A DNA stretch of 64,000 nt from a phage. Shown here in pieces: positions 30,782 to 62,109 of the stretch. Location: the sequence record NC_135729.1, one strand, 5' to 3'. The translations under genes were made by a program, and so were the position numbers. The notes below the pieces were generated by a model that was not told the DNA's origin, did not search any database, and saw nothing but the letters and a program-made list of their open reading frames with translations. Position 1 is the first letter of the stretch. Each line of letters begins with the position of its first letter.

Positions 30782-30783
30782 TC

Positions 30784-33307: not shown

Positions 33308-33310
33308 GAA

Positions 33311-33511: not shown

Positions 33512-33550
33512 TTATAAAAAGAAAGGGGCCGTCTGGCCCCTTTTTATTTG
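33511..33550. terminator. bidirectional rho-independent terminator between convergent operons
   Basis: GGGGCC-GTCT-GGCCCC hairpin (33525-33540) flanked by AAAAAGAAA upstream and TTTTTATTTG downstream. Confidence 0.7.
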
Positions 33551-33557
33551 CCTCCTG

Positions 33558-42727: not shown

Positions 42728-43312
42728 TTAGAGGGTAGGTCGCTCCGGGAAGAAAATGTCAGGGGCTTTAGATGTATCTATTTCAAGAAGTTTTACCCTG
42801 TACATTTTCAAATCTCTGATGTTACGTTTCTGGTCATCAGTAAGATCATATTCAAGGTCAATCATGTCTTGATAGGCACCAATTCTAGCAGTAGCCCAAG
42901 CAAGTTCTGTCTCTATGACACCCTCTGCCTGTTGAACAAAGAATTCATTGTCTGTGACAAATTCATCACCAACTAAACGCAAAGCGTCGTGGTGAAGCAT
43001 AATGTTTTCTGGTACCTCTTCTTTTTTGGCGATAACCACACGAAGACCTGGAGCAGGCCATAAGGCATCAGGTTCTTCTGTAGATGTCTTAAGAATTCCC
43101 TTCTCGTCAACAAGTAGGAAGATACACCCTGGATTTTCTTGTCGTAATGTTCGTGACTGCACATACCAATCACCATCATCATTACGTAAAAAATACCCAG
43201 TGTATGCGGTGTAATCCTCAACCTCTTGAGGGGTCAGCTCCTTGGTTTCCTTGTTGGAGTGGTATTCGCCAGATCCCGGTTGGTAAAGTTTAAACTCTTG
43301 AAGTATTTTCAT
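42728..43312 (-). CDS. tail fibre assembly chaperone (Tfa/Caudo_TAP-like)
   Basis: C-terminal signature MYRVKLLEIDTSKAPDIFFPERP (YR..L..ID.S.AP.I.FP..P). Confidence 0.6.
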   Translation of the reverse strand: MKILQEFKLYQPGSGEYHSNKETKELTPQEVEDYTAYTGYFLRNDDGDWYVQSRTLRQENPGCIFLLVDEKGILKTSTEEPDALWPAPGLRVVIAKKEEVPENIMLHHDALRLVGDEFVTDNEFFVQQAEGVIETELAWATARIGAYQDMIDLEYDLTDDQKRNIRDLKMYRVKLLEIDTSKAPDIFFPERPTL

Positions 43313-43326: not shown

Positions 43327-44367
43327 CTATGCATAATTAACAGTGATCCATTGACCGTTTACAAGTTTTTGTAAAGGTCCTGCCCAGTAGGTTGAACCAC
43401 GCATCTCTTTTTTGTCACCGAAATGCCAGCCTGTGACAACGTAGCCGTTGCGAATTGGAGATTCGGAAACGCCGTCAACAAGTCTTGCACCGATTCTGAT
43501 GTCTTGCACACCTGTCTGCGGGATAGTGATTGTTACATCACCGTTACCGTTAGCCGTCACTCCATTCACAGAGCGCACCACATTTCTGTTACCGACAACA
43601 CAGTGCTGACTTCTTACAACCATACTGTCACAACTTGCACCTCCATTAACATACACTGACCCAGTCGTCAACTGACTAGCCACATTACAGTTGGTGAATG
43701 TTGCTGTATTGCTGATAGTAAGGTTATTGCACCTCATGTTATCGACAACTTCAACATTGCCTACCACTTTCAACAGCGCACGATTAGCCGTGATCGCGTT
43801 AAGGTACATCAAAGTGAACTCTGGATTAATATCCGGCTGAGTTGGCTGGAATCTCCAACGAAACGCATCTACTGTAGATGTACCACCATCATCAAACGAC
43901 CCTGTATTATCACTTAACCCAAAGTCGAGAGTTGTCTTATCTGGGCCAATAGTTGTCTCTATCCAAGCCTTATCTGTCTCGGCAGCTTTAAAGTTGATAC
44001 GTTGCAACCCCAAGGGGCCTGTCATTGTATCACCTGTAACTTTTACATACCTGGCGTCTGCCTCTTCCTTAGTGATAATCCCAAGGTTTCTACGGGCAAC
44101 AGGGATGTTCAAAAGATCGCTCAAGTTATTATCACGTACCAGATAACGGCCTTCTTGAGCGGGGATCTGCTCGTCAGCAATGTATTTTGCCCAAGTTCCG
44201 AGCATATTGAAAATATAGTTAAGTTCTTCACATGAGGGCTTTTGACCAAGATCCCAACCTTTTCTCCACAAATCATCAATCGGGCGTAGCCTGTTCTGTC
44301 TGTGGGTGTTAGGCAGAACCTGATCCTCCTCTGCCCAAATCTCTAATGGAAAACTAGGTTTTGACAT
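43327..44367 (-). CDS. tail fibre protein (paralog B)
   Basis: N-terminus PLEIWAEEDQVL; tail-fibre hallmark VKVTGDTMTGPLGL; C-terminus GPLQKLVNGQWITVNYA. Confidence 0.6.
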   Translation of the reverse strand: MSKPSFPLEIWAEEDQVLPNTHRQNRLRPIDDLWRKGWDLGQKPSCEELNYIFNMLGTWAKYIADEQIPAQEGRYLVRDNNLSDLLNIPVARRNLGIITKEEADARYVKVTGDTMTGPLGLQRINFKAAETDKAWIETTIGPDKTTLDFGLSDNTGSFDDGGTSTVDAFRWRFQPTQPDINPEFTLMYLNAITANRALLKVVGNVEVVDNMRCNNLTISNTATFTNCNVASQLTTGSVYVNGGASCDSMVVRSQHCVVGNRNVVRSVNGVTANGNGDVTITIPQTGVQDIRIGARLVDGVSESPIRNGYVVTGWHFGDKKEMRGSTYWAGPLQKLVNGQWITVNYA

Positions 44368-44379
44368 TTTATCTCCTGA

Positions 44380-46452
44380 TTATGAGAAGTCTGGCGGGAC
44401 AACATCCTCTACATACCCTTTCAGAGCAACCTGCCCCATATGAAGCACGGTAGAATCTCTAGCGGTAACAGTGATGCTGTCAGACATTACTTGCGGGTAT
44501 GCCCACACATACTGTTTTACCTCAGGGTATCTATACTCTATAGTTGCCATGTTTCCGCAAATACATCTCCATAAAAATTCTTGGTAATTCCTGGTTGGGT
44601 CGTAGCCATATACCGGAGCAAGCTCTTTACTAGGAACGAACCCTGCAAGGTATTGTATTTCAGACGGTTGCCAACCTAACTTAACGATAGGTATGTTTAC
44701 AGACTCTTTTGCCTTTTCAATACCTCCCTGCATCACCCAATCGTAGCACTCGGTGCAGAAGAAATCAAGAGCACCTGCTTCCTTTTTATATTGGTCAGCA
44801 AGGTTCAGCTTTTGCGTAAGCTCGGTTTCCATGATGGTTGGGAAAAACAGCAAAGCTGTCATCTGAGCTGATGCAGCGTGTGCCTTTATTGCCTTTGAAA
44901 TAGCCGCAATACGAGCGCCAAGCTTACCACGACAAAATGCTACATACTTGTCGTAAACACCGCCAGTTTTAGGATCGTCAATAGTCCCAATATCTAATGC
45001 ATACTCACCTGTCTCATCATAAAACGCCTGCTTTGTAGGGTAATCATAAATACAAGGTCTACGAGTATCGGTATTGTACCACCACCACGGTTCACCAACC
45101 TGCATAATCACTGGCAGGTTGTTTCTCATAGCGGCTGATGCAAAATTCTTAAATACTGCAGTAAGGAAATTCATACCCTCTTCAATGGTTGGAGACAGGA
45201 GGTAGCTACAGGGTGTATACCCTGTTTTAGCGTAGTTATCGTTCCAGTCTCTTTGGGTCCATTCCAACGGGCAGGCATCGCTGAAAAGCTCAAAACTTAC
45301 AGATTGCATAACGTCGAAGTTATGTCGTTTGGCATTGTACATAAAATCATCATGCCATTTATAAGCTGCAGCGTTTAGCGCCCCTGTTCTGTTTATAGAC
45401 CATTGGGTTCCTGACCATGTGTAGTCATAATAATGACTCATACCAACATAATGGTTTATGGTTCCGGTATAGCCCAGACGCTTGATATTGTTCAACACCC
45501 TTAAAGGAGATACGTTCCACATATCGTCATATGCGGTGCAGATCCCAACGTCGTGCTCTTTAACCTGAATATTGTTAAGTTGCATCATTTTCCAGCCTGT
45601 GTCTGGCTGAAGCAGATCTAGGCGCAACTCACACTCTACATTTTCCGTTCTCGGGTCTGTGCTATTACTTACCCAGTCTTTAGGCATGAGTGGTATTAAA
45701 ATCCTTCTCACCTGCCGAGGATCAACACCCATCATGTTGTTGTTCTGGTCCATCCCGACGCAGTCCTCAAAATCAATATGAATTTCTGCAACATTCTTAT
45801 CCTCTGAGATGCTGACAGCATATTGAGCTAAAGGAACATAGATGATTGTGCCATCAACAAGGTCTACAGTCATAATCATCTTTTCAGGAGTGGAGAAGTT
45901 GCTGGCGTTGGTTATTGACATTCTGAACCAGAGCTTGGTGTTTCTCATCTCATAGTGATCATCAAACCCAATGCCGAAATGGTCATACTTGTCAACTGTT
46001 TCCCAAATACACCCAGCCATACCTCCATATGTTCTTGACACTAAACGGTTAATACAACAGTTGTTATCTGCAACAATACAGGTACTTTCAGTCTGCTGAG
46101 TAGTTGTAACCCAATACCTTGGGTGAAACATTCTCTCCTCAACAGTATCCCAAGATATCCTGTCAAGATTCTCATCTGAAACTATTGTACATTTCGCCCT
46201 TTGTGTTCCAATCATTACCCCTTGGGATTTTGATGAAAACTCCATAAAGAAGCTTCTTGGCAACCTGTTGGGTAATTTGTCAACAATTTCCACGGGGATC
46301 TCAATACTTGTTGCCCCAACTGGGATAGTTATATCGCCCTCAACATGATTATAATCCCTACCAGGAACGGCAGTATCCTGAACTGTTCGGTAATGAAACT
46401 GTGCAGCCATTGTAGAGTAATCACGGTAAGGTTTAAAAACAGCTGTTGCCAT
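44380..46452 (-). CDS. structural (baseplate/tail-associated) protein
   Basis: 690 aa; N-terminal Calx-beta-like segment (AVPGRDYNHVEGDITIPVGATSIEIPVEIVD); no catalytic motif recognised. Confidence 0.35.
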   Translation of the reverse strand: MATAVFKPYRDYSTMAAQFHYRTVQDTAVPGRDYNHVEGDITIPVGATSIEIPVEIVDKLPNRLPRSFFMEFSSKSQGVMIGTQRAKCTIVSDENLDRISWDTVEERMFHPRYWVTTTQQTESTCIVADNNCCINRLVSRTYGGMAGCIWETVDKYDHFGIGFDDHYEMRNTKLWFRMSITNASNFSTPEKMIMTVDLVDGTIIYVPLAQYAVSISEDKNVAEIHIDFEDCVGMDQNNNMMGVDPRQVRRILIPLMPKDWVSNSTDPRTENVECELRLDLLQPDTGWKMMQLNNIQVKEHDVGICTAYDDMWNVSPLRVLNNIKRLGYTGTINHYVGMSHYYDYTWSGTQWSINRTGALNAAAYKWHDDFMYNAKRHNFDVMQSVSFELFSDACPLEWTQRDWNDNYAKTGYTPCSYLLSPTIEEGMNFLTAVFKNFASAAMRNNLPVIMQVGEPWWWYNTDTRRPCIYDYPTKQAFYDETGEYALDIGTIDDPKTGGVYDKYVAFCRGKLGARIAAISKAIKAHAASAQMTALLFFPTIMETELTQKLNLADQYKKEAGALDFFCTECYDWVMQGGIEKAKESVNIPIVKLGWQPSEIQYLAGFVPSKELAPVYGYDPTRNYQEFLWRCICGNMATIEYRYPEVKQYVWAYPQVMSDSITVTARDSTVLHMGQVALKGYVEDVVPPDFS

Positions 46453-47138
46453 TAACCCTCCTGTCTAGTTGCGTTTACTGTAATACTTTCACAATAAATG
46501 GTTGTGGTGTCCCAATCAGGTCTTACGTCAGGAACATATAGCAAAGTAGCCAGCCCACCAACTCCGAATTGGATTTCTTCCCACACTGATCCGAAGCCAA
46601 GAGCTGTAGAGTCCCCTTCAAAACCAAAAGCTTGCCCTTGCGATTCTGTAAGACGCAAATGACAAGGTAATGGTAGCATATCTAAGATCTGATCGATAGA
46701 CTGCAATATGTCAAAGCAAGTTTTTCTAATATTTATGTCAAACCTGAAGTTGTCTCCTTTCCACGTATCGAAATTGTCTCTTCCGAACAATTGTCGCAAG
46801 GTGGAGATGACATCTTCTCGAGTCCCGCCCCTTGATGCTGCAGCCTGCTGAATAATTAGTGTGGCACGAAAATCAGCATCTGAAAGTCCATTCCTAAGAA
46901 TACCAAGCTGATTACCAACTTCGTCAAGGTATCTTCCGCTGGCATTGTTAAGCAATCTTCCTTCAGCCAAACCTACCAGCATCTTATCAACATCCTCCAA
47001 CCTTTTAAGGTACACGGTTAAGAATGTGACTAAATTAACCTTCTCAGCCAGAAAATCTCCAGGCAGGTAGTCAAGACCTCCCTGAACAAAATCTGGCAGA
47101 GTGTGGATGTGGTTAACATCCGACTTAATCTCTGCCAT
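46452..47138 (-). CDS. baseplate/tail-associated protein (positional)
   Basis: 228 aa, directly downstream of the baseplate J-like gene with 1-nt overlap. Confidence 0.3.
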   Translation of the reverse strand: MAEIKSDVNHIHTLPDFVQGGLDYLPGDFLAEKVNLVTFLTVYLKRLEDVDKMLVGLAEGRLLNNASGRYLDEVGNQLGILRNGLSDADFRATLIIQQAAASRGGTREDVISTLRQLFGRDNFDTWKGDNFRFDINIRKTCFDILQSIDQILDMLPLPCHLRLTESQGQAFGFEGDSTALGFGSVWEEIQFGVGGLATLLYVPDVRPDWDTTTIYCESITVNATRQEG

Positions 47139-47149
47139 ATCTCGCCGCC

Positions 47150-48640
47150 TTAAATAGTTTGTTGGAAAGTTATATTACTTTCGTCGAGGTCAAACACCTC
47201 GGTCATGTTCGCAACAATATCGTTTGTAGTGTAAGCTTCATCAGAAGCTCCTACTGGTTTAACTTGAATTACCAGTCTATTAAATCTGCCTATTGACACA
47301 GCAGCAGATGCAGCACCGACCAATTGGATATTGTACAACGTATCTGCAACATCCAGTCCGTTAACAACCTGTAAAAGAGCCTCTACAATGGCATCTTTTT
47401 CGGTTGTGGAAAGCGCAGCACCGGAATAGGTAATTCTTACATCTAGGCGGTAGGTATTCGCCTTGGAGTAATAAATTCTTTCAGTTTGACCGTCAGATGT
47501 AGTGACATCGTAGAAAATATTACCATAAGTCCTGTTCGTACAGGCTATAGTTTGGTAAAGTGCTTGGCAAATGTCCTCCGTTGCACCACCAAACACAACC
47601 ACTTGGAACTTGTAAGGAGGTATACCTTTAGCATCAGTTTTATCAGTGTTGTTGGAGAACACTCTCACTTTCTCAACACCTTTCACCTCGCTTACAGCGC
47701 TAAGGATTGCAGGACGGGTAGCCTTCGATGTTAACTGTTTTGTGCTGGAAGCTCTTAAGCGATACTCGGAATCTTTCTCAACATCCCTGCCCTCGTTGAA
47801 TCTTTCTCGGTTGGTAAGCTTGATAAATCCGCTGGGAGTAGGTGACATTGTTGTCACGGTCTCTGCCTCTCTTGACAGCTCACCAGCCTCGTTAGCTATA
47901 ACATCTAGGGTGATAGTTCTTTCCCCTACAATCGGGGATACTCTGAAATCTACCCTACTATTAAGTCCAACTTGATCAAGATTCGAATTGTACCCTATCC
48001 ACAACGTTCCTGTCAACATATCGATCTGAATCAAATCGTCGTTCAACAGGGTTGTATTATCGACAATGAACTGCTTAATCTCTCCGTAAAAGCTTGGCAG
48101 ATCAGAAGAGTCCAGAGACTTATCTGTTAAAACCAGACTTTTTGTTTTGATACTTCCATCTGTCTGGTTGGTGATTTGAAAGTTGTATTTACCAATCCTT
48201 AGGTCTGGAGCATTTATTCTGTGGGCAATAAGATTCCCTGCCACCTGCACATCATTGCTAAGAACAAAGTTGCCACTATCCAGCGTATAAGTTTTGGAAT
48301 CATAAATCATATTGTACGGCACAGTTGTGTTGATTGTCAACTGGCAGGTACCTGATGATTTAGAACGGCCTCTTCGGTAAATACCCTGTCTTCCAAGAAG
48401 CTCATCCAGGTAAATACCTTCTGCCCCATACAGCGTCTGTGATGCGTATACAGATGCTGCCATAAGAATAAGTTGATACTCTCGCTCGTTGAAGATAGTG
48501 GTCAGCTTATCTGCAACGGAGTTACTCTGTACGTTGAAGTTTTCGCCAAAAGCACGGATCAGGCTTTGCTTAGTTTCAACGATTAGGTCATTTAGGGTTG
48601 GTATAACGAAACCAGCCTCTGTCAATCCATACTTAGCCAC
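47150..48640 (-). CDS. baseplate J-like (wedge) protein
   Basis: N-terminal FVIPTLNDLIVETKQSLIRAFG and YLDELLGRQGIYRRGRSKSSG resemble the Baseplate_J family signature (P.L.ELI ... LD.L..G..R....G). Confidence 0.45.
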   Translation of the reverse strand: MAKYGLTEAGFVIPTLNDLIVETKQSLIRAFGENFNVQSNSVADKLTTIFNEREYQLILMAASVYASQTLYGAEGIYLDELLGRQGIYRRGRSKSSGTCQLTINTTVPYNMIYDSKTYTLDSGNFVLSNDVQVAGNLIAHRINAPDLRIGKYNFQITNQTDGSIKTKSLVLTDKSLDSSDLPSFYGEIKQFIVDNTTLLNDDLIQIDMLTGTLWIGYNSNLDQVGLNSRVDFRVSPIVGERTITLDVIANEAGELSREAETVTTMSPTPSGFIKLTNRERFNEGRDVEKDSEYRLRASSTKQLTSKATRPAILSAVSEVKGVEKVRVFSNNTDKTDAKGIPPYKFQVVVFGGATEDICQALYQTIACTNRTYGNIFYDVTTSDGQTERIYYSKANTYRLDVRITYSGAALSTTEKDAIVEALLQVVNGLDVADTLYNIQLVGAASAAVSIGRFNRLVIQVKPVGASDEAYTTNDIVANMTEVFDLDESNITFQQTI

Positions 48641-48673
48641 GTCACTCCTCCGGTATGAAAATCTCTACAAGGT

Positions 48674-48702
48674 ATTTTACCAAATTTTGTAACAATAGTC
48701 AA
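48674..48702 (-). promoter_or_regulatory. sigma70-like promoter with extended -10
   Basis: minus strand TTGACT - 17 nt - TGG-TAAAAT; directly follows the terminator at 48709-48738. Confidence 0.45.
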
Positions 48703-48708
48703 TCTGAG

Positions 48709-48738
48709 CATAAAAATAAACCCCGCCGAAGCGGGGCT
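48709..48738 (-). terminator. rho-independent terminator
   Basis: minus-strand CCCCGC-TTCG-GCGGGG hairpin followed by TTTATTTTTA. Confidence 0.7.
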
Positions 48739-48745
48739 TTAAAGG

Positions 48746-51700
48746 TTAGTCGTGAGACTCGTTCCAAGGTCCCTGGAAGCTTGAGTTAGAACGACTAACG
48801 ATCACAGTGGGACAGGAGATTGTGACACCTGTCACGTTCGACGTTGACCACGGTGTGTAAATCTCGATAACAATGTCTATAGTTTGTTCACCCAGACCTG
48901 TTATCCCTACCGCACACATACCGTTGTTGTCGTTAAAATACTTCTTGCCAGCAAGGATCTGATGACCAGCTATCCATGCATTCAGTTGGGAGCCGGCAAG
49001 AGTACCATTCAGTTTAAAGAAGAATGTTACGTTCTTACCCTGACCTGAAACGTTATCTACGTATCTCCACCTCCAACGGCAAACCCTTTGCCGGGAGTTA
49101 TATACTGGAGCACAATCTCCGTAAGTCCTGTGTGCAACAATTGCACCTTCGAACTGGTTAGCGCGGATAACAGAAGCTTCTACACGACCACGGAAGGTAC
49201 CTCCGGTTGCATCTATGGTGCCTCTAAAGCTGCCATTATTGGCATAAACATCTCCACGGAAGGTACCACTAGTGGCGTTAACTGCCCCTGTGAAGTTACC
49301 AGAACTGGCGTTGATGTTGCCTTTCACCCACACATCCATAAATTGGGCGTGCCCGTTCTTATTAATATACCAACCGTATTTATGGTACCCGTTGCCATCG
49401 TAGTTGTTTGACGAAATTTCTTGTGCGATCTTGGCAGAGGAGATCGTGCCATTCTCTATAAAAGCGTCTTTCAAGAACGCTTGGTTGTTCTTGATTGCGA
49501 AAGCAAGGGTTGCTGTTCCATTTCCTGGGTTGTATACCGCAAAATTGTTTGCACTAACCATGAAGTAGGATTGAACTTGGCCCCCAGACCCTTCCATCCC
49601 CAGCTGGATACCTGCAACATATTTATTCCCTGCGGAGTCTACCTGTATTTTTGTGCCCCATTGAGCATTTACTTTACCCTCTAAGTCGGTTACAGCCTTA
49701 GATGTTGTAGCTACTGCAGCCCTGATCTCAGACACATCCCCAACATCATCAATGATCTCCTGCTTAGCAACAGCAAGTTCTTGACGAATAGCTGACGCTG
49801 TGCCGTTGATAAGGTCCACAGCGGCTTTGTTGGTATCGGAAATTGTAGCATCCAGCGCTGTTTTTGTGGAGGTCAGTTTTCCATCCAAAGCATCAATCGC
49901 TTGCTTGTTGGTAGAAATCTCCCCACGTGCAGAAGTTATCTGCTCTGACAGTGCAGATGTTTTCTGATTCAGCAGGTCAGTGGTGGCCTTGTTGGTATTG
50001 GCAATCAAGGTGTTGAGGTCAGTTTTTGCGGTAGTTATCTTTCCGTCAAGGGTGGTATAGTTTTTAGATACCGTCGCGTTTGTCTGACTAATCTTTTGAT
50101 CCAGAGTTTCAGATGTCCTGTTCAAAAGATCCACAGTGGCTTGGTTGGTGCTCAAGATGCTTGCGTCAAGTTCTGTTCTCTGAGTATTGATCTTACCATC
50201 TAGAGTTTTATCTCCGGCTAAATACCCGCTCTCAACTCCCTCTATCTGCTCTACCAGTTCACCTTTGGCGGCAACCAATTTCTCATCTAAAGCCTCTGTC
50301 TTTTTGTTCAGAAGATCAGTAGTTGCTTTATTGGTTGTCTCAATCAGAGATGCCAATCTTCCACTTTCAGTGTTCAGATCGTTGGTGAACTTGTTCTGTG
50401 CAGCAACAAGTTTCCTATCCAGCGCTGTGATATTGCCATTGACATCCTCAAACTTCTGAGTTGTCTCTGTAACTACCGCACCTATTCTGTCTCCAAGTTG
50501 CTGGAATGCCTCATCTACCCTACCATCCATGTATTTATTAAGCTCTGTGACACGATTTTCAACCTCTTCAATAGAGGAATCCAAAGTGCTCATCAACTCT
50601 TTATAAGTTTCTGTCTTTTTGAATTCAGCATCTATCTGAGGCATCAAATCCTCGATAGAGGTGTAGCAGCGTGCAGCGCATTCTACAAACTGAGAGCTAC
50701 CAAAAGCGTTTGTGGTTCGAATATACCAATAATAAACCTTATCGTTCTGCAGGCCTTCAGATGTCCAAGTTGAACCAACACCCATACGGGTGGCTTTTGA
50801 AGTAACGGTTGCATCACTGGTATCTGGCAATCTTGTCATCCCAGATGTCCAAAAGTCATATTGGGTGCTTACACTGGCCAAGTCTCTGCTGTGCGGGATC
50901 AGGGTAATAGCAAAGTATCCCTGTTTAACTTCTACAGAAACCGGAGCCTCAGGTGCCTGAATGTTAAACTCACAGTATGCTTCTGGAGATACACCACCTT
51001 TATAAGATGTTGCAACAACAGTGGCTGTGTAGGAACCTTTAGTCAGACCTTCAACACGGACAAACTGCTCAACTGTCTGCGCTGTCCAGACAATCTCTCC
51101 GTTTTTCCTGACCTGCACAATGTTTTGAGCATAAGTCCCAACGTTGTCCCAAGCCAAAACACCGTGAGTTACTTCTCCAGCTTGGAGAACGGAATATCTG
51201 AAGTTTTGCGGTTGAGCTACACCAGATGGAGATATCGGAATATCTACATCGCCAGAATCCGGAAGTTGCCCTGTGGCATCATTCCACTCTTTAGCATCTT
51301 GACGAAGTTTTACCTTGACACCACCCTTTTTGGTAAACTCCCATTCAAGAACTCTCATTTCTTGGCCCACTATACCAATACTTGGGAGGTCCATTGTAAC
51401 GTAACGACCAGGTTTAAATTTGAAACCTCGCATATTGCAGGTGACTTCAATAATCCTGCCAGCTCTGGCACGTCTTAGGAAGATTGCAGAAACACGTTGA
51501 GCTTGATAAGGACTGGTAACAAAGCGATAGTCTATATCGATTATCTTTCTTTCTCCATCCTTCTCTATCCACTCTGGGACAAACACTGATGGAAAATCTG
51601 TTTCAGAATACCCTTTGGTCGGACTAGTGAATCTGCCAGTTATTGTGTTGGATCTTTTGTCAAATGAGGCTTCCGGATAGATCTTGACCTCACCACAGAC

Positions 51701-52585
51701 ACAATCCTCACTCAGTGTCATTGTTGCCGGGCCATAGTATGCACCAACCAACAAACCATACTTACCAGCTACATAACTAAGATCTGCACCGCAAGCTTTC
51801 AGCATTTCTGCCATAATACTTGCTGGGGCCTCATCCATGTCAAACTCACCGTTAATGGTGTAACGGCGCTCACTGGTTCCGTCTGCGTTTTTTACCGCCT
51901 CGTCGCATATGTTGGCAGCCTCCTTGAAGGACTCCCAGTTGATGGTTTCGTCAGGACATTTAAGGTACGTTCTTAAATAGTCTAGGATCACCAAGGCAGC
52001 GTTATTGGTGTACACCTCTTTACTGATACGAGGATCATAGCATTTTTTACCAATCTTGACGAGTGTAACGTTTGGCAACCCAAAAGGAAACTTGTTAGGG
52101 TCAAACCTGAAGCTGGCACGTAGCCAACTGATCCCTCTACCTATCATGTCAGGTGACCATGATGGGCAGTGTGTACCCATGAAAGGATCAGATGTTTTTC
52201 TGTCGTTATGTAGCTCCCACGATACCAGATCTCCATACGAGGAAATAGGATTACCGTCGATAAGTATATCTTCTATACCTTCCAGAGGGTGATTGGCAAG
52301 AACAATAGCACAATGGAGGGTTCTGTCGCTATCCTGCTCCAAAAACGCAAGCAATCCAGATGTGCGTGTCTTCCCATACACTACAGAGCAAGGTGCAGCA
52401 GAAGATCTGAGAAGATTTTGTCTATCTTGCTGACTTCTGTAAGATTTGTTGCCCTCAAAAATCTTATCCAAAGTTCTGGTGGTCACAGTGTTCAGGCTGT
52501 CAGCCAGAGCTGCCTTGGATGCGTTCCAGTCATAACTTGAAGATCTTGCAGAAGCAACGATGTTATCAATCATTGCAATTGGCAT
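48746..52585 (-). CDS. host-specificity / central tail fibre protein with lambda gpJ-like FN3 and distal regions
   Basis: GYFAITLIPHS and YYWYIRTTNAFGSSQFVE vs lambda J GYFQITATPH and YYFYIRSVNTVGKSAFVE; NKYVAGIQLGMEG...FMVSANNFAVYNPGNG vs KHYVAGIGLSMED...FLVAANRIAFIDPANG; central repeat array (TDLLN-containing heptad-like units). Confidence 0.65.
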   Translation of the reverse strand: MPIAMIDNIVASARSSSYDWNASKAALADSLNTVTTRTLDKIFEGNKSYRSQQDRQNLLRSSAAPCSVVYGKTRTSGLLAFLEQDSDRTLHCAIVLANHPLEGIEDILIDGNPISSYGDLVSWELHNDRKTSDPFMGTHCPSWSPDMIGRGISWLRASFRFDPNKFPFGLPNVTLVKIGKKCYDPRISKEVYTNNAALVILDYLRTYLKCPDETINWESFKEAANICDEAVKNADGTSERRYTINGEFDMDEAPASIMAEMLKACGADLSYVAGKYGLLVGAYYGPATMTLSEDCVCGEVKIYPEASFDKRSNTITGRFTSPTKGYSETDFPSVFVPEWIEKDGERKIIDIDYRFVTSPYQAQRVSAIFLRRARAGRIIEVTCNMRGFKFKPGRYVTMDLPSIGIVGQEMRVLEWEFTKKGGVKVKLRQDAKEWNDATGQLPDSGDVDIPISPSGVAQPQNFRYSVLQAGEVTHGVLAWDNVGTYAQNIVQVRKNGEIVWTAQTVEQFVRVEGLTKGSYTATVVATSYKGGVSPEAYCEFNIQAPEAPVSVEVKQGYFAITLIPHSRDLASVSTQYDFWTSGMTRLPDTSDATVTSKATRMGVGSTWTSEGLQNDKVYYWYIRTTNAFGSSQFVECAARCYTSIEDLMPQIDAEFKKTETYKELMSTLDSSIEEVENRVTELNKYMDGRVDEAFQQLGDRIGAVVTETTQKFEDVNGNITALDRKLVAAQNKFTNDLNTESGRLASLIETTNKATTDLLNKKTEALDEKLVAAKGELVEQIEGVESGYLAGDKTLDGKINTQRTELDASILSTNQATVDLLNRTSETLDQKISQTNATVSKNYTTLDGKITTAKTDLNTLIANTNKATTDLLNQKTSALSEQITSARGEISTNKQAIDALDGKLTSTKTALDATISDTNKAAVDLINGTASAIRQELAVAKQEIIDDVGDVSEIRAAVATTSKAVTDLEGKVNAQWGTKIQVDSAGNKYVAGIQLGMEGSGGQVQSYFMVSANNFAVYNPGNGTATLAFAIKNNQAFLKDAFIENGTISSAKIAQEISSNNYDGNGYHKYGWYINKNGHAQFMDVWVKGNINASSGNFTGAVNATSGTFRGDVYANNGSFRGTIDATGGTFRGRVEASVIRANQFEGAIVAHRTYGDCAPVYNSRQRVCRWRWRYVDNVSGQGKNVTFFFKLNGTLAGSQLNAWIAGHQILAGKKYFNDNNGMCAVGITGLGEQTIDIVIEIYTPWSTSNVTGVTISCPTVIVSRSNSSFQGPWNESHD

Positions 52586-53022
52586 TAATACCTCCAGACA
52601 TCAACAACGATAGAATCTTTCATGTCGAACATAAAGACCCCTTTATCACCTTTCGCCCAAATCTGGTTGTTCCAGAACACACCAGCGGTGAGCCCGTTCA
52701 GACCTTCGAAAATAACAATATCGCCACGCTGAACCTGTTTAGGAGTATCCAGTCGAGTCATAAAGAGATCAAAAATAGTAGGCAGGTGTGTAGTTTTGAA
52801 ACGAAGCATGCACCATCTTTTGCTTTCCAACTCTGTTTTATACGTTCCTTCGAAGTTGGAAAGAAAATCTGTTCCGTATTGGGCATCAACACACTTAGCC
52901 GCAAAGGTGCAACAATCGTGGAATCCCCATTCAAAAGGTATGGTGGCCTCTTCGTCAAACACTTTCCACAATCTTTCTTGCCAATCCACTAAACGAGGGT
53001 GTGTGCTCATTAAACCTCCCAA
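52585..53022 (-). CDS. tail assembly protein, NlpC/P60-like (gpK-like) candidate
   Basis: GFHDCCTF (Cys motif) and RGDIVIFEG resemble NlpC/P60 DCS and GDLVYF; no clear catalytic His seen. Confidence 0.3.
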   Translation of the reverse strand: MGGLMSTHPRLVDWQERLWKVFDEEATIPFEWGFHDCCTFAAKCVDAQYGTDFLSNFEGTYKTELESKRWCMLRFKTTHLPTIFDLFMTRLDTPKQVQRGDIVIFEGLNGLTAGVFWNNQIWAKGDKGVFMFDMKDSIVVDVWRY

Positions 53023-53576
53023 ATGATCGGGCGGCTCGCCACCTGATCCACATATTTAAAAAATCTGTCATTATCGTTTCTTGAGCTGTGGCTTTCCTCC
53101 GTGTACCGATAAGGAAAACCTCTTAACCAACTGTTGAAGATGGAAGAGATGGATATTGACAAAGCACTATTCTCACCTGTCTGAATAGCCATATCTGTTA
53201 TAAGGCCGTCAAACAAGCCATTAGTTGTGACAGGTAGACCATTCTCCATAGCGGTAATGTACAACGTGGCACGACAACCAGAATACTCCGTCTTCAGCAG
53301 ATCACCCACATACTTAGGATCAAACCCGTTCAATGTTGCTACCACAGATCCGAAGTTGGTGGCATCTTTCTCAGACACAGCAGTTAATGTTGCTGATCCC
53401 CCTATCCCTATAAAATGTTGCCCCTCAATTACTACAACACCAGTGCCTGAGCACACCCTGACAGTTCCTGTCGGTAGCTCCAGCTTTGCAGCAATTAAGA
53501 TCTCAACACCATCAAGCTCCAGCTTTTCAAGAAATAAATTATCTAATGGCGCTCTGATCATCTTAGAAATCCTCAA
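53010..53576 (-). CDS. tail protein (positional)
   Basis: 188 aa, overlaps neighbours by 13-14 nt in the tail operon. Confidence 0.3.
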   Translation of the reverse strand: MRISKMIRAPLDNLFLEKLELDGVEILIAAKLELPTGTVRVCSGTGVVVIEGQHFIGIGGSATLTAVSEKDATNFGSVVATLNGFDPKYVGDLLKTEYSGCRATLYITAMENGLPVTTNGLFDGLITDMAIQTGENSALSISISSIFNSWLRGFPYRYTEESHSSRNDNDRFFKYVDQVASRPIIWEV

Positions 53577-54153
53577 AGAAGTTGATAACTATATTATCAC
53601 CTTTTTGCATAGCATCGACTTTTTGCTTAATTTTATAAATATCTCTGATATGAAACCTACCCTTCGGGGATTGAGTTATTATCTTCATAGTGTCCCCTGC
53701 GGCAATAGGTTTTCTAAGTCTTGGAGATATGCTTATAACAGCAGACCCAACACCATCGCTACGCACTGGAGCTGTTACCACTTTCAATTCATCATTGACA
53801 GATATTTTATCCCCAGCTCTGGCTATGTCTCTGTTTGGCTCCCACCCAACCGTCTTCAAAAAATCGTCGTTACCAGTAGGCCCAAGGGCGATTGGCTCAT
53901 TAGCTGTAACTGAGTGACCGTAAGTTTTAATAAGAAAGATGTTTCCATCTTTATACACCTGATCAACAAAGCTCTTAAGCTCTAGCAACTGTGACTCGCT
54001 GATATTGGAAACCGTCAAAGTGCCTTTCCAGTTAGGTGTGGCATAGGTTACTTTTTGCGTTTTACCTGTAAACGGACTTTTAAACGTAACAATATCTGCC
54101 AGCAGCTCCAATCTAATATCTGGAAGGTATCTAGGCCTTTCCCATAAAAACAT
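53563..54153 (-). CDS. tail protein (positional)
   Basis: 196 aa, first gene after the promoter at 54185-54213. Confidence 0.3.
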   Translation of the reverse strand: MFLWERPRYLPDIRLELLADIVTFKSPFTGKTQKVTYATPNWKGTLTVSNISESQLLELKSFVDQVYKDGNIFLIKTYGHSVTANEPIALGPTGNDDFLKTVGWEPNRDIARAGDKISVNDELKVVTAPVRSDGVGSAVISISPRLRKPIAAGDTMKIITQSPKGRFHIRDIYKIKQKVDAMQKGDNIVINFFEDF

Positions 54154-54184
54154 TGTGCCTCCAGGTTAAACAATCATGATAGTT

Positions 54185-54213
54185 ATTTTACCAGATTTTG
54201 AGTTAATACGCAA
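54185..54213 (-). promoter_or_regulatory. sigma70-like promoter with extended -10
   Basis: minus strand TTGCGT - 17 nt - TGG-TAAAAT; same CAAAATYTGGTAAAATA block as at 48674-48690. Confidence 0.4.
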
Positions 54214-54245
54214 TACAAACAAAAAGCCCCCGCCGAAGCGAGGGC
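54214..54245 (-). terminator. rho-independent terminator
   Basis: minus-strand GCCCUCGC-UUCG-GCGGGGGC hairpin (one G.U pair) followed by TTTTTGTTTG. Confidence 0.65.
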
Positions 54246-54252
54246 AAAACAG

Positions 54253-57200
54253 TTACTTCAGTTTCTCTTGCAACCCAGTAACAACCTCTGTCAATTTTTT
54301 AACCTGCTCCTCAAGGGCGGTTATTTTATCGTCCTGTTCCCTGCAAACCTGGACAAGCAAGCCTGTTACGGCTGCGTAATCCACGCTGTAGAATCTTTCC
54401 TCTGTTATCAAAGGAGTTCCATCTTGATCAGGGTTTGGGATTTCCTTTCTTTGCACGAAAGAGCTAACTGCTTCCGGCAGCGCTTCAAGCACTTCTTGTG
54501 CTATAACACCTGCATAAGGCATACCGTTCTCTTTAAGAGTGTAAGTATAACCCTTCATCTTCCGGATAGCTTCTAACGCATCAGGAATAACAGCTATGTT
54601 ATCTTTCAGATCTCTGTCAGAACTCTGATTGACAGATGTGCAATTCACAGCGCCGTTTACAGAAAGATATCTTGATTTATCTGGCAAGGTACCGCAATGC
54701 CATACCCAATTTGATTGAGACTCGTCAAGAACCTTAAACTCTAACACGTTTGGACGATCTCCTGTGCTGCCGTTACCCCAATAATACATATGGGCGGCAT
54801 TAGCAGGCATGTTGCCACCGTTATTAGTAACATGACTTCCAGAAATATATACCTTTAACTCTGGGGTTGGTATTTCCCCTTCCGGGGTTGTTCCTCCATA
54901 CCTGAAGCTAACACCATTACCACCTGTTTGGGTCCACGGGCCCCAAGTGAAGACCTGTTTCACCATATTCCCATAACGTGTAAATCTATCGCCATGGTAG
55001 GTAATATATTCTTGAACACACCCATTACCGTTATTGGCGTTATTTTGCAACACAATAAGTGTTCCGGCCTCATTTACGGGATAATGACGATCATATGTTG
55101 CATCATTATTTGCAGGCTGATGGTAAATACCTTCCCACAATCCGTGATAGGTGTTAAGGTCTGAAGAACCAAGACCTTGACCCCTGTGTTGCATAGCCTT
55201 ATTCCAGGGATGGTGATTACCACCTTCTATAGACCTGGTGTATAAGTTACTTTGTCTGCCAGCAATCTGGAAAGCGTAGTTTCCCGAGAATCCTACAGAT
55301 AACCCGCCTACAACCATGGTATCTTGTGGGCCGTTAACATTACCAGCTATTATTTTTGACGGGTTGTTAGGCCCGAACTGGTTGTTCCAGTCTGCACCTG
55401 TGTGGCATACAAAACCACCTGGTGCTGAGAAAGTACCATCTTTGTTGAAGTTGTAGAATCTATGAGCTGTGCCTACAACATCACGAACAATAACTTGACC
55501 AGCCTCTGGAGTAGATCTGAACTCTGCTTGACCTTTAAGGCCAGCACCATTACCGCATTTAGAGGTAAACGTGCCGTTAGTTAGATCCTCTGTTCCATCT
55601 GATGCACACTGGAATCCTGCGTTAGAGAATAGCGCCTTTCTAGGACCACTGTAGCACAAATAGTCAAAACCGTCAGCCCATAGCTCTACTTTAGGCATGT
55701 TCATTTTGCTCATTATCGCATAGCGTTCAGCAGTGCCTATATAGTGCCACTGTGTGCCGCCGCCAGTGTAGAACCCTGAAGTGCCTTTGAAGTCAACAAT
55801 AGGTCTGGTATTGGTATTGTTATCTCCAAGAACAGCTAGATTCAAGTCTGCTGATTGAAGAGGTGCAACGAACTTAACCCCATCCTGATTGTTTGTTACA
55901 GAGCCGACTTGATAATCTTGCTCTCTGGTAAACACTTCGACAACATTTCTACTTGCGTATATGCTGACAGGGAAAGCACGAGCCTCTGCATAGAAAGCAA
56001 CATACTCTTGTTTACCCCTTGTTGGAGCAACCATCCCAAGAAGTGCTTTTTCATTCTTCTGGTAGAAATTTACTACCCCGTAGAAAGAGTCTCCCCTGTC
56101 CGTCCAGCCGCCAGTTCTATAGTGACACTGCAGGGTGGCACAGTTCATAGGGTCATTTCCAGATGAAAACCTGGTGACTATAGTAATATCAGTGCCAGTT
56201 GCTGGAGCATAGTACGGATCTGTTCTAACGATGATTGGGTAGTATTTCCCATCTTCCATCCCTGCGGTTCTTGGCAGTGTTAAGAAGTCTTTTACACCTG
56301 CCGCTATAGGAACTTTGAACAGATTCTGAGCATCTGCTAAAGTTGTAGCTCCAGTGCCACCTGCGGCTTGAGGTAAAGGTTCCCACTTGGCCTTCCGGTT
56401 GTTATAAACACCCCACTCCAAAGTGCCGTTACCGGATTCGTCCATCCCACCATCCCAGATAACCATCTTGGCGGCTTTCTTGGACCCCCAGAAGCCTCTT
56501 TCTGCTCCTGAACTACGGATCCACTCTCCAAGTCCCCAGTTTGTCAGCTGACCAGTAAGATCCCCAACCTGCATATATTTAGGGCAGTCTAATACTCCGT
56601 CTTCGCGGAAACCTAAATATCTGTGAGTTTCAGATCCTTTTGCACCTTTGTGCAGGTGGATTGTCAACCAAGCTTTATTGTCGTTTCTTACCTCAGAGTA
56701 GATCCTATAACCATGCTCAAGGACACCGTCAGCGTTGTATTTGTCCCCGTTAACAATACCTGATGCTGACTTAACATCAGCAGAACTTTGAGACAGGTAA
56801 AGGTGCCCGAAGGTAGGGGAATTTCTAGACCCGAGACCGATGTGCGATCTAAAGGTATCATCGTTACGAGGTCTGACCATCGGCTGCCATGCAGTCCACT
56901 GGTTTGTGTTGGCTTGATAGGTTCTCAAATACCAAACATCTACGTTAGAGAATGGATAGTATTCCTGACGACAACCTGTACCGCCGTTAGCATTGTTCTG
57001 CCAAACAATCAAGTGACCAGCACCAGAACCTGCAGGGTAACCATTTTCCTCAGTTGCATAAGCAGTCATCGGCTGGTAGTATACACCATCCTGATTACCA
57101 GTCAAGTTATTGATATTGAAATTTGGCTCAAGGGCTGCACGTTGCTTATAGAAAGCCCCGATATTGATACGGACTCCAGCGGCATCTCTGGCCCCTGTAC

Positions 57201-58068
57201 CGCCTTGCTCTATAGCAAGAGGTTGCCACGAGGCTGTTTGTTGGTTCCACATACCCCAACGGCCTGTTGCATCAAGCTGCAAGTACCCTGCCGTGTTTAA
57301 ATCATCTCCAGCACGGATAACTGTTCTTGTTGGGTTGTTTGCCTCCAGGCGTTTAAATTCATCACGAAGTGCTATTCTTTTTGTTGTCGCTACACCGTTG
57401 GTTACTGAGATGGTATACATAGCTCCGGAGGTAGCTCCACGGAAAATACCATCAACAGTTGTAGTATCACGACGAGATACCACACCGTTCAGAAATTTTT
57501 CACCAGCTGCTACAGAGGGATAGTTGGTGGTTCTTCCCTCTTCAATAACTGCAGGGCCAACAAAGTTATCAAGGTGGATAACATCACTTACAGTGTGCAC
57601 TGTACCAAAATCTACACGCTGTGCAAGGGCTTTAGCATCGTTAGCTGTCTGAACAGTAACATCCATTACATCCTGGACAGACTGCCCTTCGGCTGTCATG
57701 ATCATAGATGCGCCAATGGTAGATTCCAACTCCTCCCTTAAGGACGGGTCAGTATATACCATCCATGCAGCGTCAGTAATCCCACCATCAGCGTACGGTG
57801 AAGATAGTGCAGGAACAGTGTGTGGAAATTCGCCTTTCCAACGCAGGTAGAGGTCTTCCTCTTCGAAGTAGGCAAAATCCATTGGGCCGTTTAACTTACC
57901 ACCTTCCTTAAAGGAGATTACATGAGAAACAGTCCCATCCACATGGACAACATCGCCAATTTTTACACGACGGGTCAGGTCTGGTTGTTGAACAACCAGG
58001 TAATCATCCTCTGTCACTGCGGTAGTGGCAGGAAGAGATTCAATTCTGACAACTTTAATATCAGCCAT
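54253..58068 (-). CDS. tail fibre/tailspike with C-terminal intramolecular chaperone (Peptidase_S74) domain
   Basis: C-terminus SSDRDLKDNIAVIPDALEAIRKMKGYTYTLKENGMPYAGVIAQEVLEALPEAV (S74 auto-processing signature); N-terminal anchor module shared with 60703-61371. Confidence 0.7.
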   Translation of the reverse strand: MADIKVVRIESLPATTAVTEDDYLVVQQPDLTRRVKIGDVVHVDGTVSHVISFKEGGKLNGPMDFAYFEEEDLYLRWKGEFPHTVPALSSPYADGGITDAAWMVYTDPSLREELESTIGASMIMTAEGQSVQDVMDVTVQTANDAKALAQRVDFGTVHTVSDVIHLDNFVGPAVIEEGRTTNYPSVAAGEKFLNGVVSRRDTTTVDGIFRGATSGAMYTISVTNGVATTKRIALRDEFKRLEANNPTRTVIRAGDDLNTAGYLQLDATGRWGMWNQQTASWQPLAIEQGGTGARDAAGVRINIGAFYKQRAALEPNFNINNLTGNQDGVYYQPMTAYATEENGYPAGSGAGHLIVWQNNANGGTGCRQEYYPFSNVDVWYLRTYQANTNQWTAWQPMVRPRNDDTFRSHIGLGSRNSPTFGHLYLSQSSADVKSASGIVNGDKYNADGVLEHGYRIYSEVRNDNKAWLTIHLHKGAKGSETHRYLGFREDGVLDCPKYMQVGDLTGQLTNWGLGEWIRSSGAERGFWGSKKAAKMVIWDGGMDESGNGTLEWGVYNNRKAKWEPLPQAAGGTGATTLADAQNLFKVPIAAGVKDFLTLPRTAGMEDGKYYPIIVRTDPYYAPATGTDITIVTRFSSGNDPMNCATLQCHYRTGGWTDRGDSFYGVVNFYQKNEKALLGMVAPTRGKQEYVAFYAEARAFPVSIYASRNVVEVFTREQDYQVGSVTNNQDGVKFVAPLQSADLNLAVLGDNNTNTRPIVDFKGTSGFYTGGGTQWHYIGTAERYAIMSKMNMPKVELWADGFDYLCYSGPRKALFSNAGFQCASDGTEDLTNGTFTSKCGNGAGLKGQAEFRSTPEAGQVIVRDVVGTAHRFYNFNKDGTFSAPGGFVCHTGADWNNQFGPNNPSKIIAGNVNGPQDTMVVGGLSVGFSGNYAFQIAGRQSNLYTRSIEGGNHHPWNKAMQHRGQGLGSSDLNTYHGLWEGIYHQPANNDATYDRHYPVNEAGTLIVLQNNANNGNGCVQEYITYHGDRFTRYGNMVKQVFTWGPWTQTGGNGVSFRYGGTTPEGEIPTPELKVYISGSHVTNNGGNMPANAAHMYYWGNGSTGDRPNVLEFKVLDESQSNWVWHCGTLPDKSRYLSVNGAVNCTSVNQSSDRDLKDNIAVIPDALEAIRKMKGYTYTLKENGMPYAGVIAQEVLEALPEAVSSFVQRKEIPNPDQDGTPLITEERFYSVDYAAVTGLLVQVCREQDDKITALEEQVKKLTEVVTGLQEKLK

Positions 58069-58083
58069 TCTTTCTCCTGAAAG

Positions 58084-58100
58084 GGGGCAAACAGCCCCCT
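58084..58100 (-). terminator. intergenic hairpin (possible attenuator)
   Basis: GGGGGC-AAACA-GCCCCC; weak T-tract on the minus strand, so terminator function uncertain. Confidence 0.3.
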
Positions 58101-58103
58101 ATG

Positions 58104-60701: not shown

Positions 60702-60702
60702 C

Positions 60703-61371
60703 TTAGATAGCTCCTGCGATAATCAGTGCCCCGTACCAAGTTAACCCGTTGTCGTAGGTTTCCAACTTGAAAATGTCTGTTGCACCAGCTGTAAATGTTA
60801 GGATAGGATCTCTTCCGTAGGACCATTTAACATTACCAGGCCAATAGACTTTGTTGCCGCCAGAGGTCTGAGTAATGCATACAGTTATAGTTCTCGCCAC
60901 CCCTTCAAGACCTTCTGTTTGATTTTCAAAAGAGATTGTGGTATTTGAAGTTAGTCGAACCTTAAAGGTATCCGCAACTTCAAGATCCATATCAAGCTGA
61001 CCACCGATAGATCCGTAATCAACTATTCTGCCAGAAGAAGTTGCAGCAAGCTCACCAAAAACAGACCAGGCATTTGCAGACACACCTCCAGCACCCTCTA
61101 CAGTGGAGTCTGGGAGGATTATTTTAGGATAATCCCCGTTCCACGTGTAGTAGCGCTTAGTTTCTGGGTCATAAGCAAAGTCCTTCTTGCTCTTAAGATA
61201 ACCACCCTCTGTGAAATAGACTATCTTGGTAATGCTAAGATCGTTGACAACATCGTCAATCTTAGCCTTTCTTGTCCCATCAGTCTGGTTGACAACCAAG
61301 AAGTCATCACTCAGGACTGTTTCTGCATCTTCAAGATCTGGAATTGGTATTGTAGGATAAGCTACAGCCAT
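60703..61371 (-). CDS. short fibre-adaptor-like protein carrying the shared fibre N-terminal module
   Basis: LSDDFLVVNQTDGTRKAKIDDVV...FTEGGYLKSKKDFAY aligns with TEDDYLVVQQPDLTRRVKIGDVV...FKEGGKLNGPMDFAY of 54253-58068. Confidence 0.4.
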   Translation of the reverse strand: MAVAYPTIPIPDLEDAETVLSDDFLVVNQTDGTRKAKIDDVVNDLSITKIVYFTEGGYLKSKKDFAYDPETKRYYTWNGDYPKIILPDSTVEGAGGVSANAWSVFGELAATSSGRIVDYGSIGGQLDMDLEVADTFKVRLTSNTTISFENQTEGLEGVARTITVCITQTSGGNKVYWPGNVKWSYGRDPILTFTAGATDIFKLETYDNGLTWYGALIIAGAI

Positions 61372-61380
61372 GATTTCTCC

Positions 61381-62097: not shown

Positions 62098-62109
62098 GAA
62101 AGCCCTCTA

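Follow-up and report, generated by a model that had tools for sequence, protein, structure and literature searches.

Among described phage tails, the closest counterparts of the genes discussed here are found in the Queuovirinae (Seurat, Skure and yong3; the Nonagvirus 9g) and in Yersinia phage PY54. In these phages four genes with products of about 195, 195, 138 and 1000 amino acids (aa) directly follow the tape-measure gene and end the non-contractile tail, the last of them encoding a protein with a hub, fibronectin type III (FN3) domains and a tail-tip fibre. The order tape-measure protein (TMP)-distal tail protein (Dit)-L-DUF6950-J recurs in seven annotated siphoviruses; in Seuratvirus, 9g, PY54, Pseudomonas phiPSA1, Roseobacter CRP-822 and Vibrio K486 it always comes with Dit and L of ~195 aa each and a DUF6950 protein of ~135 aa before J. 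The gene order Dit-hub-peptidase-large tip protein of the Rhodobacter capsulatus gene transfer agent (RcGTA) is likewise the same as here. We describe such a set of four genes, in the same order, near-equal lengths and architecture, in a window of 64,000 nucleotides of the phage record NC_135729.1 (all positions below are those of this window), where it lies among the baseplate genes of a contractile tail. The open reading frames (ORFs) of the window match gp28-gp46 of phage rV5 one-to-one and are named here by the rV5 numbers; the gene in which the set ends, gp37 (48746-52585, minus strand), encodes a J-like protein of 1279 aa. We find that gp40-gp39-gp38-gp37 constitute a complete siphovirus tail-tip module in canonical order, an identification that we make with high confidence.

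A siphovirus tail-tip module in a Vequintavirus

The gp37 homologue, read from an ATG start, matches PHROG 31 'central tail fiber J' (E 1.7e-163), and among sequences of solved structures it directly matches lambda gpJ (8iyk; E 1.4e-28), in an alignment that spans only the FN3 domains and C-terminal fibre of gpJ. Kropinski et al. had reported COG4733 and weak HHpred matches of gp37 to Mu-type hub proteins, and the Pfam family PF13550 falls below threshold in gp37 itself (12.8 vs 23 bits) while being present in homologues of 40-50% identity. Several further lines of evidence bear on the hub. Over residues 48-722, gp37 shows 43% identity to the central fibre of Hafnia phage yong3 (Seuratvirus; residues 52-721), a stretch that takes in the N-terminal part which in yong3 must make up the tail-tip cone; over the N-terminal 490 aa, identity is 57% to Seuratvirus proteins and 51% to 9g. 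A 26-sequence profile of residues 1-660 matches lambda J at 158-486 (the hub; domain E 5e-14) and 608-825 (FN3), as well as T5/DT57C pb3 at 266-843 (E 2e-31 to 2e-33) and the tip protein of phage T1. An AlphaFold2 (AF2) model of the same residues has a predicted local distance difference test score (pLDDT) of 79, with residues 1-62 disordered and the shaft helix beginning at residue 644. Foldseek searches with this model recover lambda J first (E 2.2e-37), followed by DT57C/T5 pb3 and the tips of T1, JBD30, Chi and RcGTA, the top matches being without exception siphovirus or gene transfer agent (GTA) tip hubs. Since the identity to yong3 and other Seuratvirus proteins, the profile, the AF2 model and the fold search agree, we conclude that the hub is present.

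Thus, gp37 is a full-length J/pb3-type protein. Its J/pb3-type hub domains (residues ~63-440; 51266-52399) are followed by FN3/Ig domains (residues ~455-645; 50651-51223), in which Ig_J_second (PF24489) covers residues 547-652 (E 1.4e-30) and Ig_J (PF24421) is also matched (E 2.6e-5). Next comes a long α-helical, coiled-coil shaft (residues ~646-955; 49721-50650), the variable part of the protein, which gives only weak matches to coiled-coil families. The distal part (residues 957-1279; 48746-49717) consists of a tail-tip β-helix, Phage_Tail_Tip (PF09327) at residues 957-1097 (E 1.2e-38), and a C-terminal domain of ~145 aa. The distal domain matches C-terminal fragments of lambda J (8xcj and 9wca; E ~1e-24); residues ~1136-1279 found no match in profile and PDB searches, yet they are conserved in phage LL12. 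The initial annotation had described the 1279-aa product as sharing FN3 and distal motifs with lambda gpJ, and PF24489, PF09327, PHROG 31 and 8iyk all bear this out.

The gp40, gp39 and gp38 homologues lie directly upstream of gp37 on the same strand, and the GenBank notes of rV5 record similarity to PY54 for ORFs 37-40. The first, gp40 (53563-54153; 196 aa), matches phrog_1302 'distal tail protein' (E 2.2e-50) and is 26-33% identical to the product of the gene directly after the tape-measure gene in Seuratvirus, 9g and PY54. A profile of 60 gp40 sequences matches the Dit of the T5-like phage DT57C (8hqz_H) colinearly (E 3.3e-4), with T5 pb9 at E 0.12. The margin of the PDB match is modest; together with the syntenic first position in the module, it points to gp40 as a Dit-like protein of the pb9 type.

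The second gene, gp39 (53010-53576), encodes 188 aa from a TTG start or 183 aa from the RefSeq ATG at 53561. Its product matches phrog_2048 'tail protein' (E 8.9e-68) and is 36% identical to a 'minor tail protein' of yong3. Foldseek searches with an AF2 model (pLDDT 77) recover the N-terminal domain of T5 pb3, JBD30 (8rk3_O), Sf11 (9occ_F), T1 (9l9p_J) and RcGTA (6tba_7A), and the match to lambda gpL (8iyk_L) has an E value of 9.8e-5 and a query-normalised TM-score (TMq) of 0.52. Lambda gpL binds an iron-sulfur cluster through a C-terminal cluster of cysteines. Since gp39 has no gpL-type C-terminal cysteine cluster (its two cysteines are not conserved in the family alignment) and an hhalign comparison of the gp39 family with lambda gpL was not significant, we place it outside the gpL family; its modelled fold suggests that it works like the tube-like domain of gpL.

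The third gene, gp38 (52585-53022), encodes a DUF6950 protein (PF22262; E 2.7e-33) of 145 aa from a TTG start (141 aa in RefSeq) and corresponds in position to lambda gpK. Identity is 41% to the product of a yong3 gene annotated as a peptidoglycan hydrolase, and other relatives are annotated similarly. A W-G-x-x-D-C motif is invariant across seven distant relatives; the alignment of the D-C motif to the cysteine region of lambda gpK is weak (hhalign, 22 columns, E 0.052, not significant). No conserved histidine of the NlpC/P60 kind is evident in the gp38 alignment after GD(I/V)V (GD(I/V)V...GLTAGV). Hence, the 'cell wall hydrolase' labels on gp38 relatives may be over-called, and enzymatic activity of gp38 is putative, its one link to gpK being the weak alignment of the D-C motif. 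The TTG starts of the gp39 and gp38 ORFs lie 5 and 4 codons, respectively, upstream of the RefSeq ATGs, the true starts being uncertain. Both genes run a few bases into the adjacent ones, which is also seen in siphovirus modules.

Direct phmmer searches with gp40, gp39 and gp38 against PDB sequences gave chance matches only, profiles of seven sequences for the gp40 and gp39 families found no PDB match, and NCBIfam holds no model matching gp38-40. The gp40 match needed the 60-sequence profile and that of gp39 the fold search; likewise, a protein search with gp39 alone retrieved three near-identical proteins, and an alignment query widened the result.

The phage itself is a myovirus. The 20 kb from 44000 to 64000 are 97-99% identical, over their full length, to those of more than 100 phage genomes, which are rV5-like Vequintavirus, among them rV5 (NC_011041; 97.5%) and the BASEL phage AlexBoehm (97.8%). 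At least 80% of the query is covered in 109 independently sequenced phage records, with the gene order kept. All ORFs from 39 kb to the window end are on the minus strand. The initial annotation had proposed a search for sheath or tape-measure genes just beyond the window, and it proved positive: the annotations of rV5 and AlexBoehm place the tube initiator, the tape measure gp49, chaperones, the tube gp52 and the sheath gp53 directly past its end. Electron microscopy had shown the contractile tail of rV5, including contracted tails (PMC3606486). With sheath, tube and tape-measure genes directly beyond the window in near-identical genomes, the window comes from an rV5-type E. coli Vequintavirus, a contractile-tailed myovirus. 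Between 18 and 22 GenBank records labelled 'Campylobacter phage' (MG0656xx; host Campylobacter jejuni) are 98-99% identical over the 20 kb and include its closest matches; here the host label looks doubtful, or coliphages may have been carried over.

The module has the fibre gene gp41 on one side and the wedge gene gp36 on the other. The gp36 homologue, which lies outside the module (47150-48640), is a Baseplate_J-type wedge subunit (PF04865, 36.7 bits, cutoff 21.1; phrog_6 'baseplate wedge subunit', E 6.8e-45) with homologues in 516 phage records, mostly of genomes of ~80-158 kb, and gp35, its partner wedge protein, matches phrog_4056 'baseplate protein'. Further along (61381-63791, minus strand) lie genes for separate tail-axis proteins: gp44 (61381-62097), of the gp25-like wedge/sheath-initiator family (phrog_120, E 1.1e-20; phrog_4233); gp45 (62110-62787), with the phage central spike's N-terminal domain (PF18352; E 1.4e-9) and, at its C-terminus (...YKGHTHSCPDGETSGPH / ...GHTHSCPDGETSGPH), an HTH...GPH tip; and gp46 (62787-63791), which matches phrog_196 'baseplate hub' (E 2.3e-83). 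The counterparts of these proteins in phage phi92, namely hub gp137, the spike, sheath initiator gp139 and wedge gp145/146, have been placed in the baseplate using cryo-electron microscopy (cryo-EM; PMC13450770). Together these matches indicate that the tail axis is built by a canonical contractile set of hub gp46, iron-type spike gp45, gp44 and the wedges gp36/gp35. Both the wedge and the gpV-like spike candidate of the initial annotation are thereby upheld, so that profile searches support its J-like and its baseplate assignments alike.

In contrast to the siphoviruses with this gene order, the module is not next to a tape-measure gene: the sole TMP, rV5 gp49, lies ~10 kb away, with the hub, spike and sheath-initiator genes and three fibre genes in between. 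Searching by tblastn and hidden Markov models with the C-termini of seven siphovirus TMPs, we found no siphovirus TMP-like segment in any ORF of the window or in the 44-kb structural region of rV5, no match being better than E 0.2.

Boundaries, distribution and variation of the module

The module is bracketed by two related intergenic units. Upstream (54154-54252, minus strand), gp41 is followed by a terminator-like hairpin, GCCCTCGCTTCGGCGGGGGC with a T-run at 54245-54226, an extended -10 promoter-like site (AAAATCTGGTAAAATA at 54199-54184) and a ribosome-binding site before gp40. Downstream (48641-48745, minus strand), a paralogous terminator-promoter unit separates gp37 from the wedge gene, with a hairpin at 48739-48718 and TTGACT-17-TAAAAT at 48702-48674. 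Both hairpins are strong and terminator-like and have the common core CGCTTCGGCGGGG, each is followed by the 16-nt extended -10 motif AAAATYTGGTAAAATA, which occurs at these two sites only in the 64 kb, and the two units of ~105 nt are colinear and identical at 67/107 positions. Klebsiella myovirus K54_rec3, whose wedge protein is 60% identical, has no module and carries a single unit of the same design directly upstream of the wedge gene, with TGGTAAAATA unique in 33 kb (L009 15882-15991); in Septuagintavirus W70 the wedge gene directly adjoins a gp44-like gene. Since the flanking unit is duplicated here and single in the module-less K54_rec3, we infer that horizontal transfer brought the module in one piece into a variable fibre locus, with the terminator-promoter region of the wedge gene becoming duplicated. 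The same layout suggests that the module is now a late operon of its own, co-regulated with the wedge genes.

We examined the distribution of the module with two of its proteins. In the phage collection, the hub region of gp37 has 116 matches of at least 95% identity, all in rV5-like phages, and none between 60% and 95%; the weaker matches, in a spread sample, all come from genomes of 30-85 kb. A scan of IMG/VR with the gp39 family yielded 80 loci, in only three of which, all rV5-like, do wedge or spike genes co-occur. Among the other 77, the arrangement L>DUF6950(>J) is kept in 76, with Dit also upstream in 33, while one has the gp39 match alone. Hence, among the myoviruses sampled, the module appears to be confined to Vequintavirus. 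Two candidates for a further myovirus carrier, picked for a larger genome or a myovirus-like name, were rejected: Vibrio K486 shows the ordinary TMP-Dit-L-DUF6950-J layout, and vB_VibM_83AMN is classified in the Queuovirinae, with module genes of the same sizes and order. In the published phi92 study, in which all phi92 proteins were screened for fibre-like folds, no J-like protein is listed.

All four ORFs are intact across the genus. Compared with rV5, gp38-40 show no nonsynonymous and 16 synonymous differences, and gp37 shows 19 and 101, respectively, giving a ratio of nonsynonymous to synonymous change (pN/pS) of 0.055, near the values of the wedge, spike and sheath-initiator genes; the module is thus under strong purifying selection. 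Within gp37 the differences from LL12 concentrate in residues 650-1000 (49586-50635), in the shaft, which are 8-64% identical with a length difference of 80 aa, while residues 1-650 and 1000-1279 are 92-100% identical. Across the genus the C-terminal half falls into identity bands of at least 99%, 95-99%, 80-90% and 60-80% while the hub stays at 95% or above, and strong allelic variation of the gene was reported with the BASEL collection. From the concentration in residues 650-1000 we conclude that the tip is conserved and the shaft variable. This pattern is the opposite of the usual variable tip on a conserved shaft. The shaft holds repeated segments of ~55 aa, e.g. TNKATTDLLNxKTxAL.

Placement on the virion and rival explanations

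We consider it fairly probable that the module was acquired whole and forms an accessory, peripheral fibre complex, a mini tail tip, rather than the central tip. A peripheral placement is the likeliest because the axis is already built by myovirus proteins common to relatives without the module, and its confinement to one genus speaks for the same role. The BASEL annotation likewise counts gp37 among the lateral tail fibres. The protein was detected in rV5 virions by 4 peptides (4.2% coverage; PMC3606486), and since the best of these, GYSETDFPSVFVPEWIEK, maps to the hub domain, this domain is retained in the virion. Micrographs of rV5 show thin fibres of ~70 nm (PMC3606486). Cryo-EM of two Vequintaviruses, Bas49 and Bas54, located three fibre types, lateral only, the J-like class not being among them, and found one fibre head, that of the TC8 fibre, connected to unassigned density (EMD-51868, EMD-51869). 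As a speculation, this density is a candidate site of the module.

As in every solved relative, gp37 and gp39, with three subunits each, would form a pseudo-hexameric cone capped by a ring of six gp40. The complex would be mounted on the baseplate periphery or on another fibre and act in host recognition, with the former tube-facing side as docking adaptor. The shaft, β-helix and C-terminal domain would make up a fibre whose length we estimate, from those of the domains, at roughly 70-80 nm, and the conserved distal β-helix and C-terminal domain might touch some conserved structure of the cell surface. Relative to the Seuratvirus module, identity decreases from the J hub (57%) over gp38 (41-45%) and gp39 (36-39%) to Dit (31-33%). 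Dit, the least conserved component, is also the one whose partner must have changed, which fits the tube-facing side as the docking surface. By this analogy we hold the peripheral mini-tip assembly with medium confidence. A more specific version, in which the Dit ring, three gpL-fold subunits and the J trimer self-assemble independently of tube and tape measure and are mounted, possibly in six copies, on the baseplate periphery, is a tentative proposal that we rate as possible rather than probable. If it is true, a whole tail-tip organelle has moved between morphotypes and been reused as a side fibre, and a receptor-triggered conformational switch might persist in it, signalling to the baseplate.

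Several points weigh against a peripheral mini-tip. Neither an experiment nor a map gives gp37, gp39 or gp40 a site on the virion, and the proteomic evidence for gp37 is thin, at 4 peptides in a run that found 19 proteins. Six tryptic peptides of gp38-40 sought in the mass-spectrometry supplement for rV5 were not found, an absence that is uninformative because the run detected only 19 proteins. A hexameric Dit ring with a closed hub cone has no known mode of docking sideways onto a wedge or fibre, and no tape-measure-like plug that would fill such a cone was found in the rV5 structural region. Moreover, receptors are already assigned elsewhere (NGR and the enterobacterial common antigen (ECA) via gp34, and the lipopolysaccharide (LPS) core via the short fibres), and variation in the shaft rather than the tip is unusual for a determinant of host range.

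The foremost rival is that gp37 alone is the fibre, docking via a repurposed hub, with gp38-40 serving as assembly factors or chaperones absent from the virion, as is thought of lambda gpK. That gp37 is the only module protein in the rV5 virion proteome, the sought gp38-40 peptides being absent, accords with this, as does the frequent chaperone role of small genes beside fibre genes, e.g. gp32 (Caudo_TAP) in the same cluster. A proteome of only 19 proteins would nevertheless miss small low-copy components; every solved relative has Dit and the gpL-fold protein as structural components of its tip, and gp39 and gp40 are full length with no nonsynonymous change relative to rV5. We therefore regard this explanation as unlikely, though worth keeping in view.

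Considerably less plausible is a hybrid tip, in which the module would lie on the tail axis beneath or around the hub and spike, so that rV5 would have a genuine central J fibre besides its spike. In its favour, the module is complete, a closing hub and Dit ring are natively on-axis, RefSeq names gp37 'central tail fiber J', and we found no published map of the centre of the rV5 baseplate in the literature. However, the HxH apex of the gp45 spike is that of a membrane-piercing tip and should be exposed, the spike is bare in the phi92 maps (PMC13450770), and hub, spike and wedge are common to genera without the module. For Bas49 and Bas54, lateral fibres alone were reported by cryo-EM, and the module lies after fibre genes, 10 kb from the tape-measure gene. 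Hence, the label 'central fibre' of the initial annotation is probably wrong for this phage, the axis being supplied by the hub gp46 and the iron-binding-type spike gp45.

The remaining two explanations are refuted. That the baseplate calls are wrong and gp37 tips a non-contractile lambda-like tail, an alternative entertained in the initial annotation, has nothing for it other than the J-like module itself; against it stand the profile matches of the wedge, hub, spike and gp25-like proteins, sheath and tube genes in genomes of at least 97% identity, the contracted tails observed in rV5 (PMC3606486) and the phi92 homologues placed by cryo-EM (PMC13450770). The baseplate calls are right, since Vequintavirus is a known myovirus with sheath, tube and TMP genes. 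An artefact (a chimeric assembly or an adjacent prophage) or a decaying relic, which the module's own terminator and promoter and its 30-57% identity to siphovirus genes might suggest, is refuted by the order kept in 109 independently sequenced genomes and in IMG/VR contigs, four intact ORFs with pN/pS of 0-0.055, and the gp37 peptide in virions.

Much of the puzzle of a J-like fibre beside a contractile-tail baseplate is thus answered by known biology, namely that of a multi-fibre rV5-type myovirus. The other alternative put forward for it, that fibre domains were exchanged between tail types, was right in direction and too narrow in scope, for what moved is a whole four-gene module including the hub.

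Neighbouring fibre genes and comparison with known systems

Several other receptor-binding genes surround the module. The gp34 homologue (44380-46452, minus strand) combines domains of the N4 'non-contractile tail sheath protein' (NCTSP TIM barrel, E 4e-80; NCTSP_N) with Calx-beta; this fibre, which the literature links to recognition of the ECA/NGR glycan, as is also the case for podovirus N4, is a second receptor-binding part in the cluster that is common to different tail morphotypes. The gp43 (60703-61371) and gp41 (54253-58068) homologues, both on the minus strand, begin with a Tail_spike_N (TSP1/Gp66) adaptor domain, and at the C-terminal end of gp41 there is an S74 intramolecular chaperone domain, an arrangement that suggests a branched network of fibres, as in CBA120-type phages. 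A pair of paralogous genes for short tail fibres (43327-44367 and 41269-42315, minus strand; 346 and 348 aa; both phrog_4465) has between its members the Caudo_TAP chaperone gene gp32 (42728-43312) and a 104-aa ORF. Such short fibres are Mu gpS-like and bind the LPS core according to the literature. Elsewhere in the window, between two long minus-strand blocks, the sign of the GC skew flips at ~26000-34000 and the ORFs are on the plus strand for ~8 kb; the 64-kb window has no tRNA genes.

The gp37 gene, its likeness to J and its myovirus context are already public. The protein is named 'central tail fiber J' in RefSeq and, in BASEL, 'lateral tail fiber protein with fibronectin type III domain', and in the RBPseg study the N-terminal region of gp37 was described as 'common in central tail fibers'. 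The novelty lies in reading the four genes as one module and in its boundaries: our literature search found no recognition of a complete hub-retaining module, of its duplicated regulatory boundaries or of its restriction, among the myoviruses sampled, to one genus, and no papers on a Vequintavirus 'tip attachment protein J'. Vequintaviruses rank with the E. coli phages that are isolated most frequently, and both biocontrol and therapy cocktails make use of them, yet the BASEL authors noted that it is unclear which genes build which Vequintavirus fibre. The module reading offers a concrete assignment for four genes and a candidate for the unassigned density in EMD-51868 and EMD-51869. If true, it would clearly exemplify the passage of a tail-tip assembly of several proteins, in one piece, between siphoviruses and myoviruses, which bears on the modularity of phage adsorption machines and on the grafting of J-type fibres onto other chassis.

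Among known systems, the baseplate around the module is that of the 'nanosized Swiss army knife', the multi-fibre apparatus found in phi92 and in the Vequintavirinae. These phages have the same core of hub, spike, sheath initiator and wedge, with several co-expressed fibre sets encoded between and after the baseplate genes. However, phi92 and the sister genera have no J-like protein and no Dit or gpL genes; their fibres are conventional trimeric fibres or spikes with N-terminal adaptors, as opposed to a hub-forming protein with a Dit partner.

The module itself finds its likenesses at the ends of non-contractile tails. Compared with the lambda tip (gpM, gpL, gpK, gpI and gpJ; 8iyk, 8k35), gp37 resembles gpJ in its hub, in its FN3 domains and in the C-terminal fibre, the gp39 model folds like gpL's tube-like domain, and gp38 takes the position of gpK. 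The differences are that there is no homologue of gpI here, that gp40 is like the T5-type Dit (pb9) and not the 109-aa gpM, and that, by sequence, neither gp38 nor gp39 is significantly related to its lambda counterpart, gpK or gpL, respectively. In the T5/DT57C tip (pb9 and pb3; 7zhj, 8hqz), gp40 has its likeness in pb9, gp37 in pb3 and gp39 in the N-terminal domain of pb3. In the RcGTA baseplate (g12-g15; 6tba), the fold of gp39 is like that of g13 and gp37 is like the chain 6tba_8A. The T5/DT57C and RcGTA tips cap a non-contractile tube, and none is known as an accessory appendage. The Queuovirinae and PY54 remain the closest: relative to their J proteins gp37 is ~280 aa longer, mainly through a longer coiled-coil shaft, and whereas their module directly follows the tape-measure gene, that of the Vequintavirus lies 10 kb from it, inside a contractile baseplate cluster with its own hub and spike.

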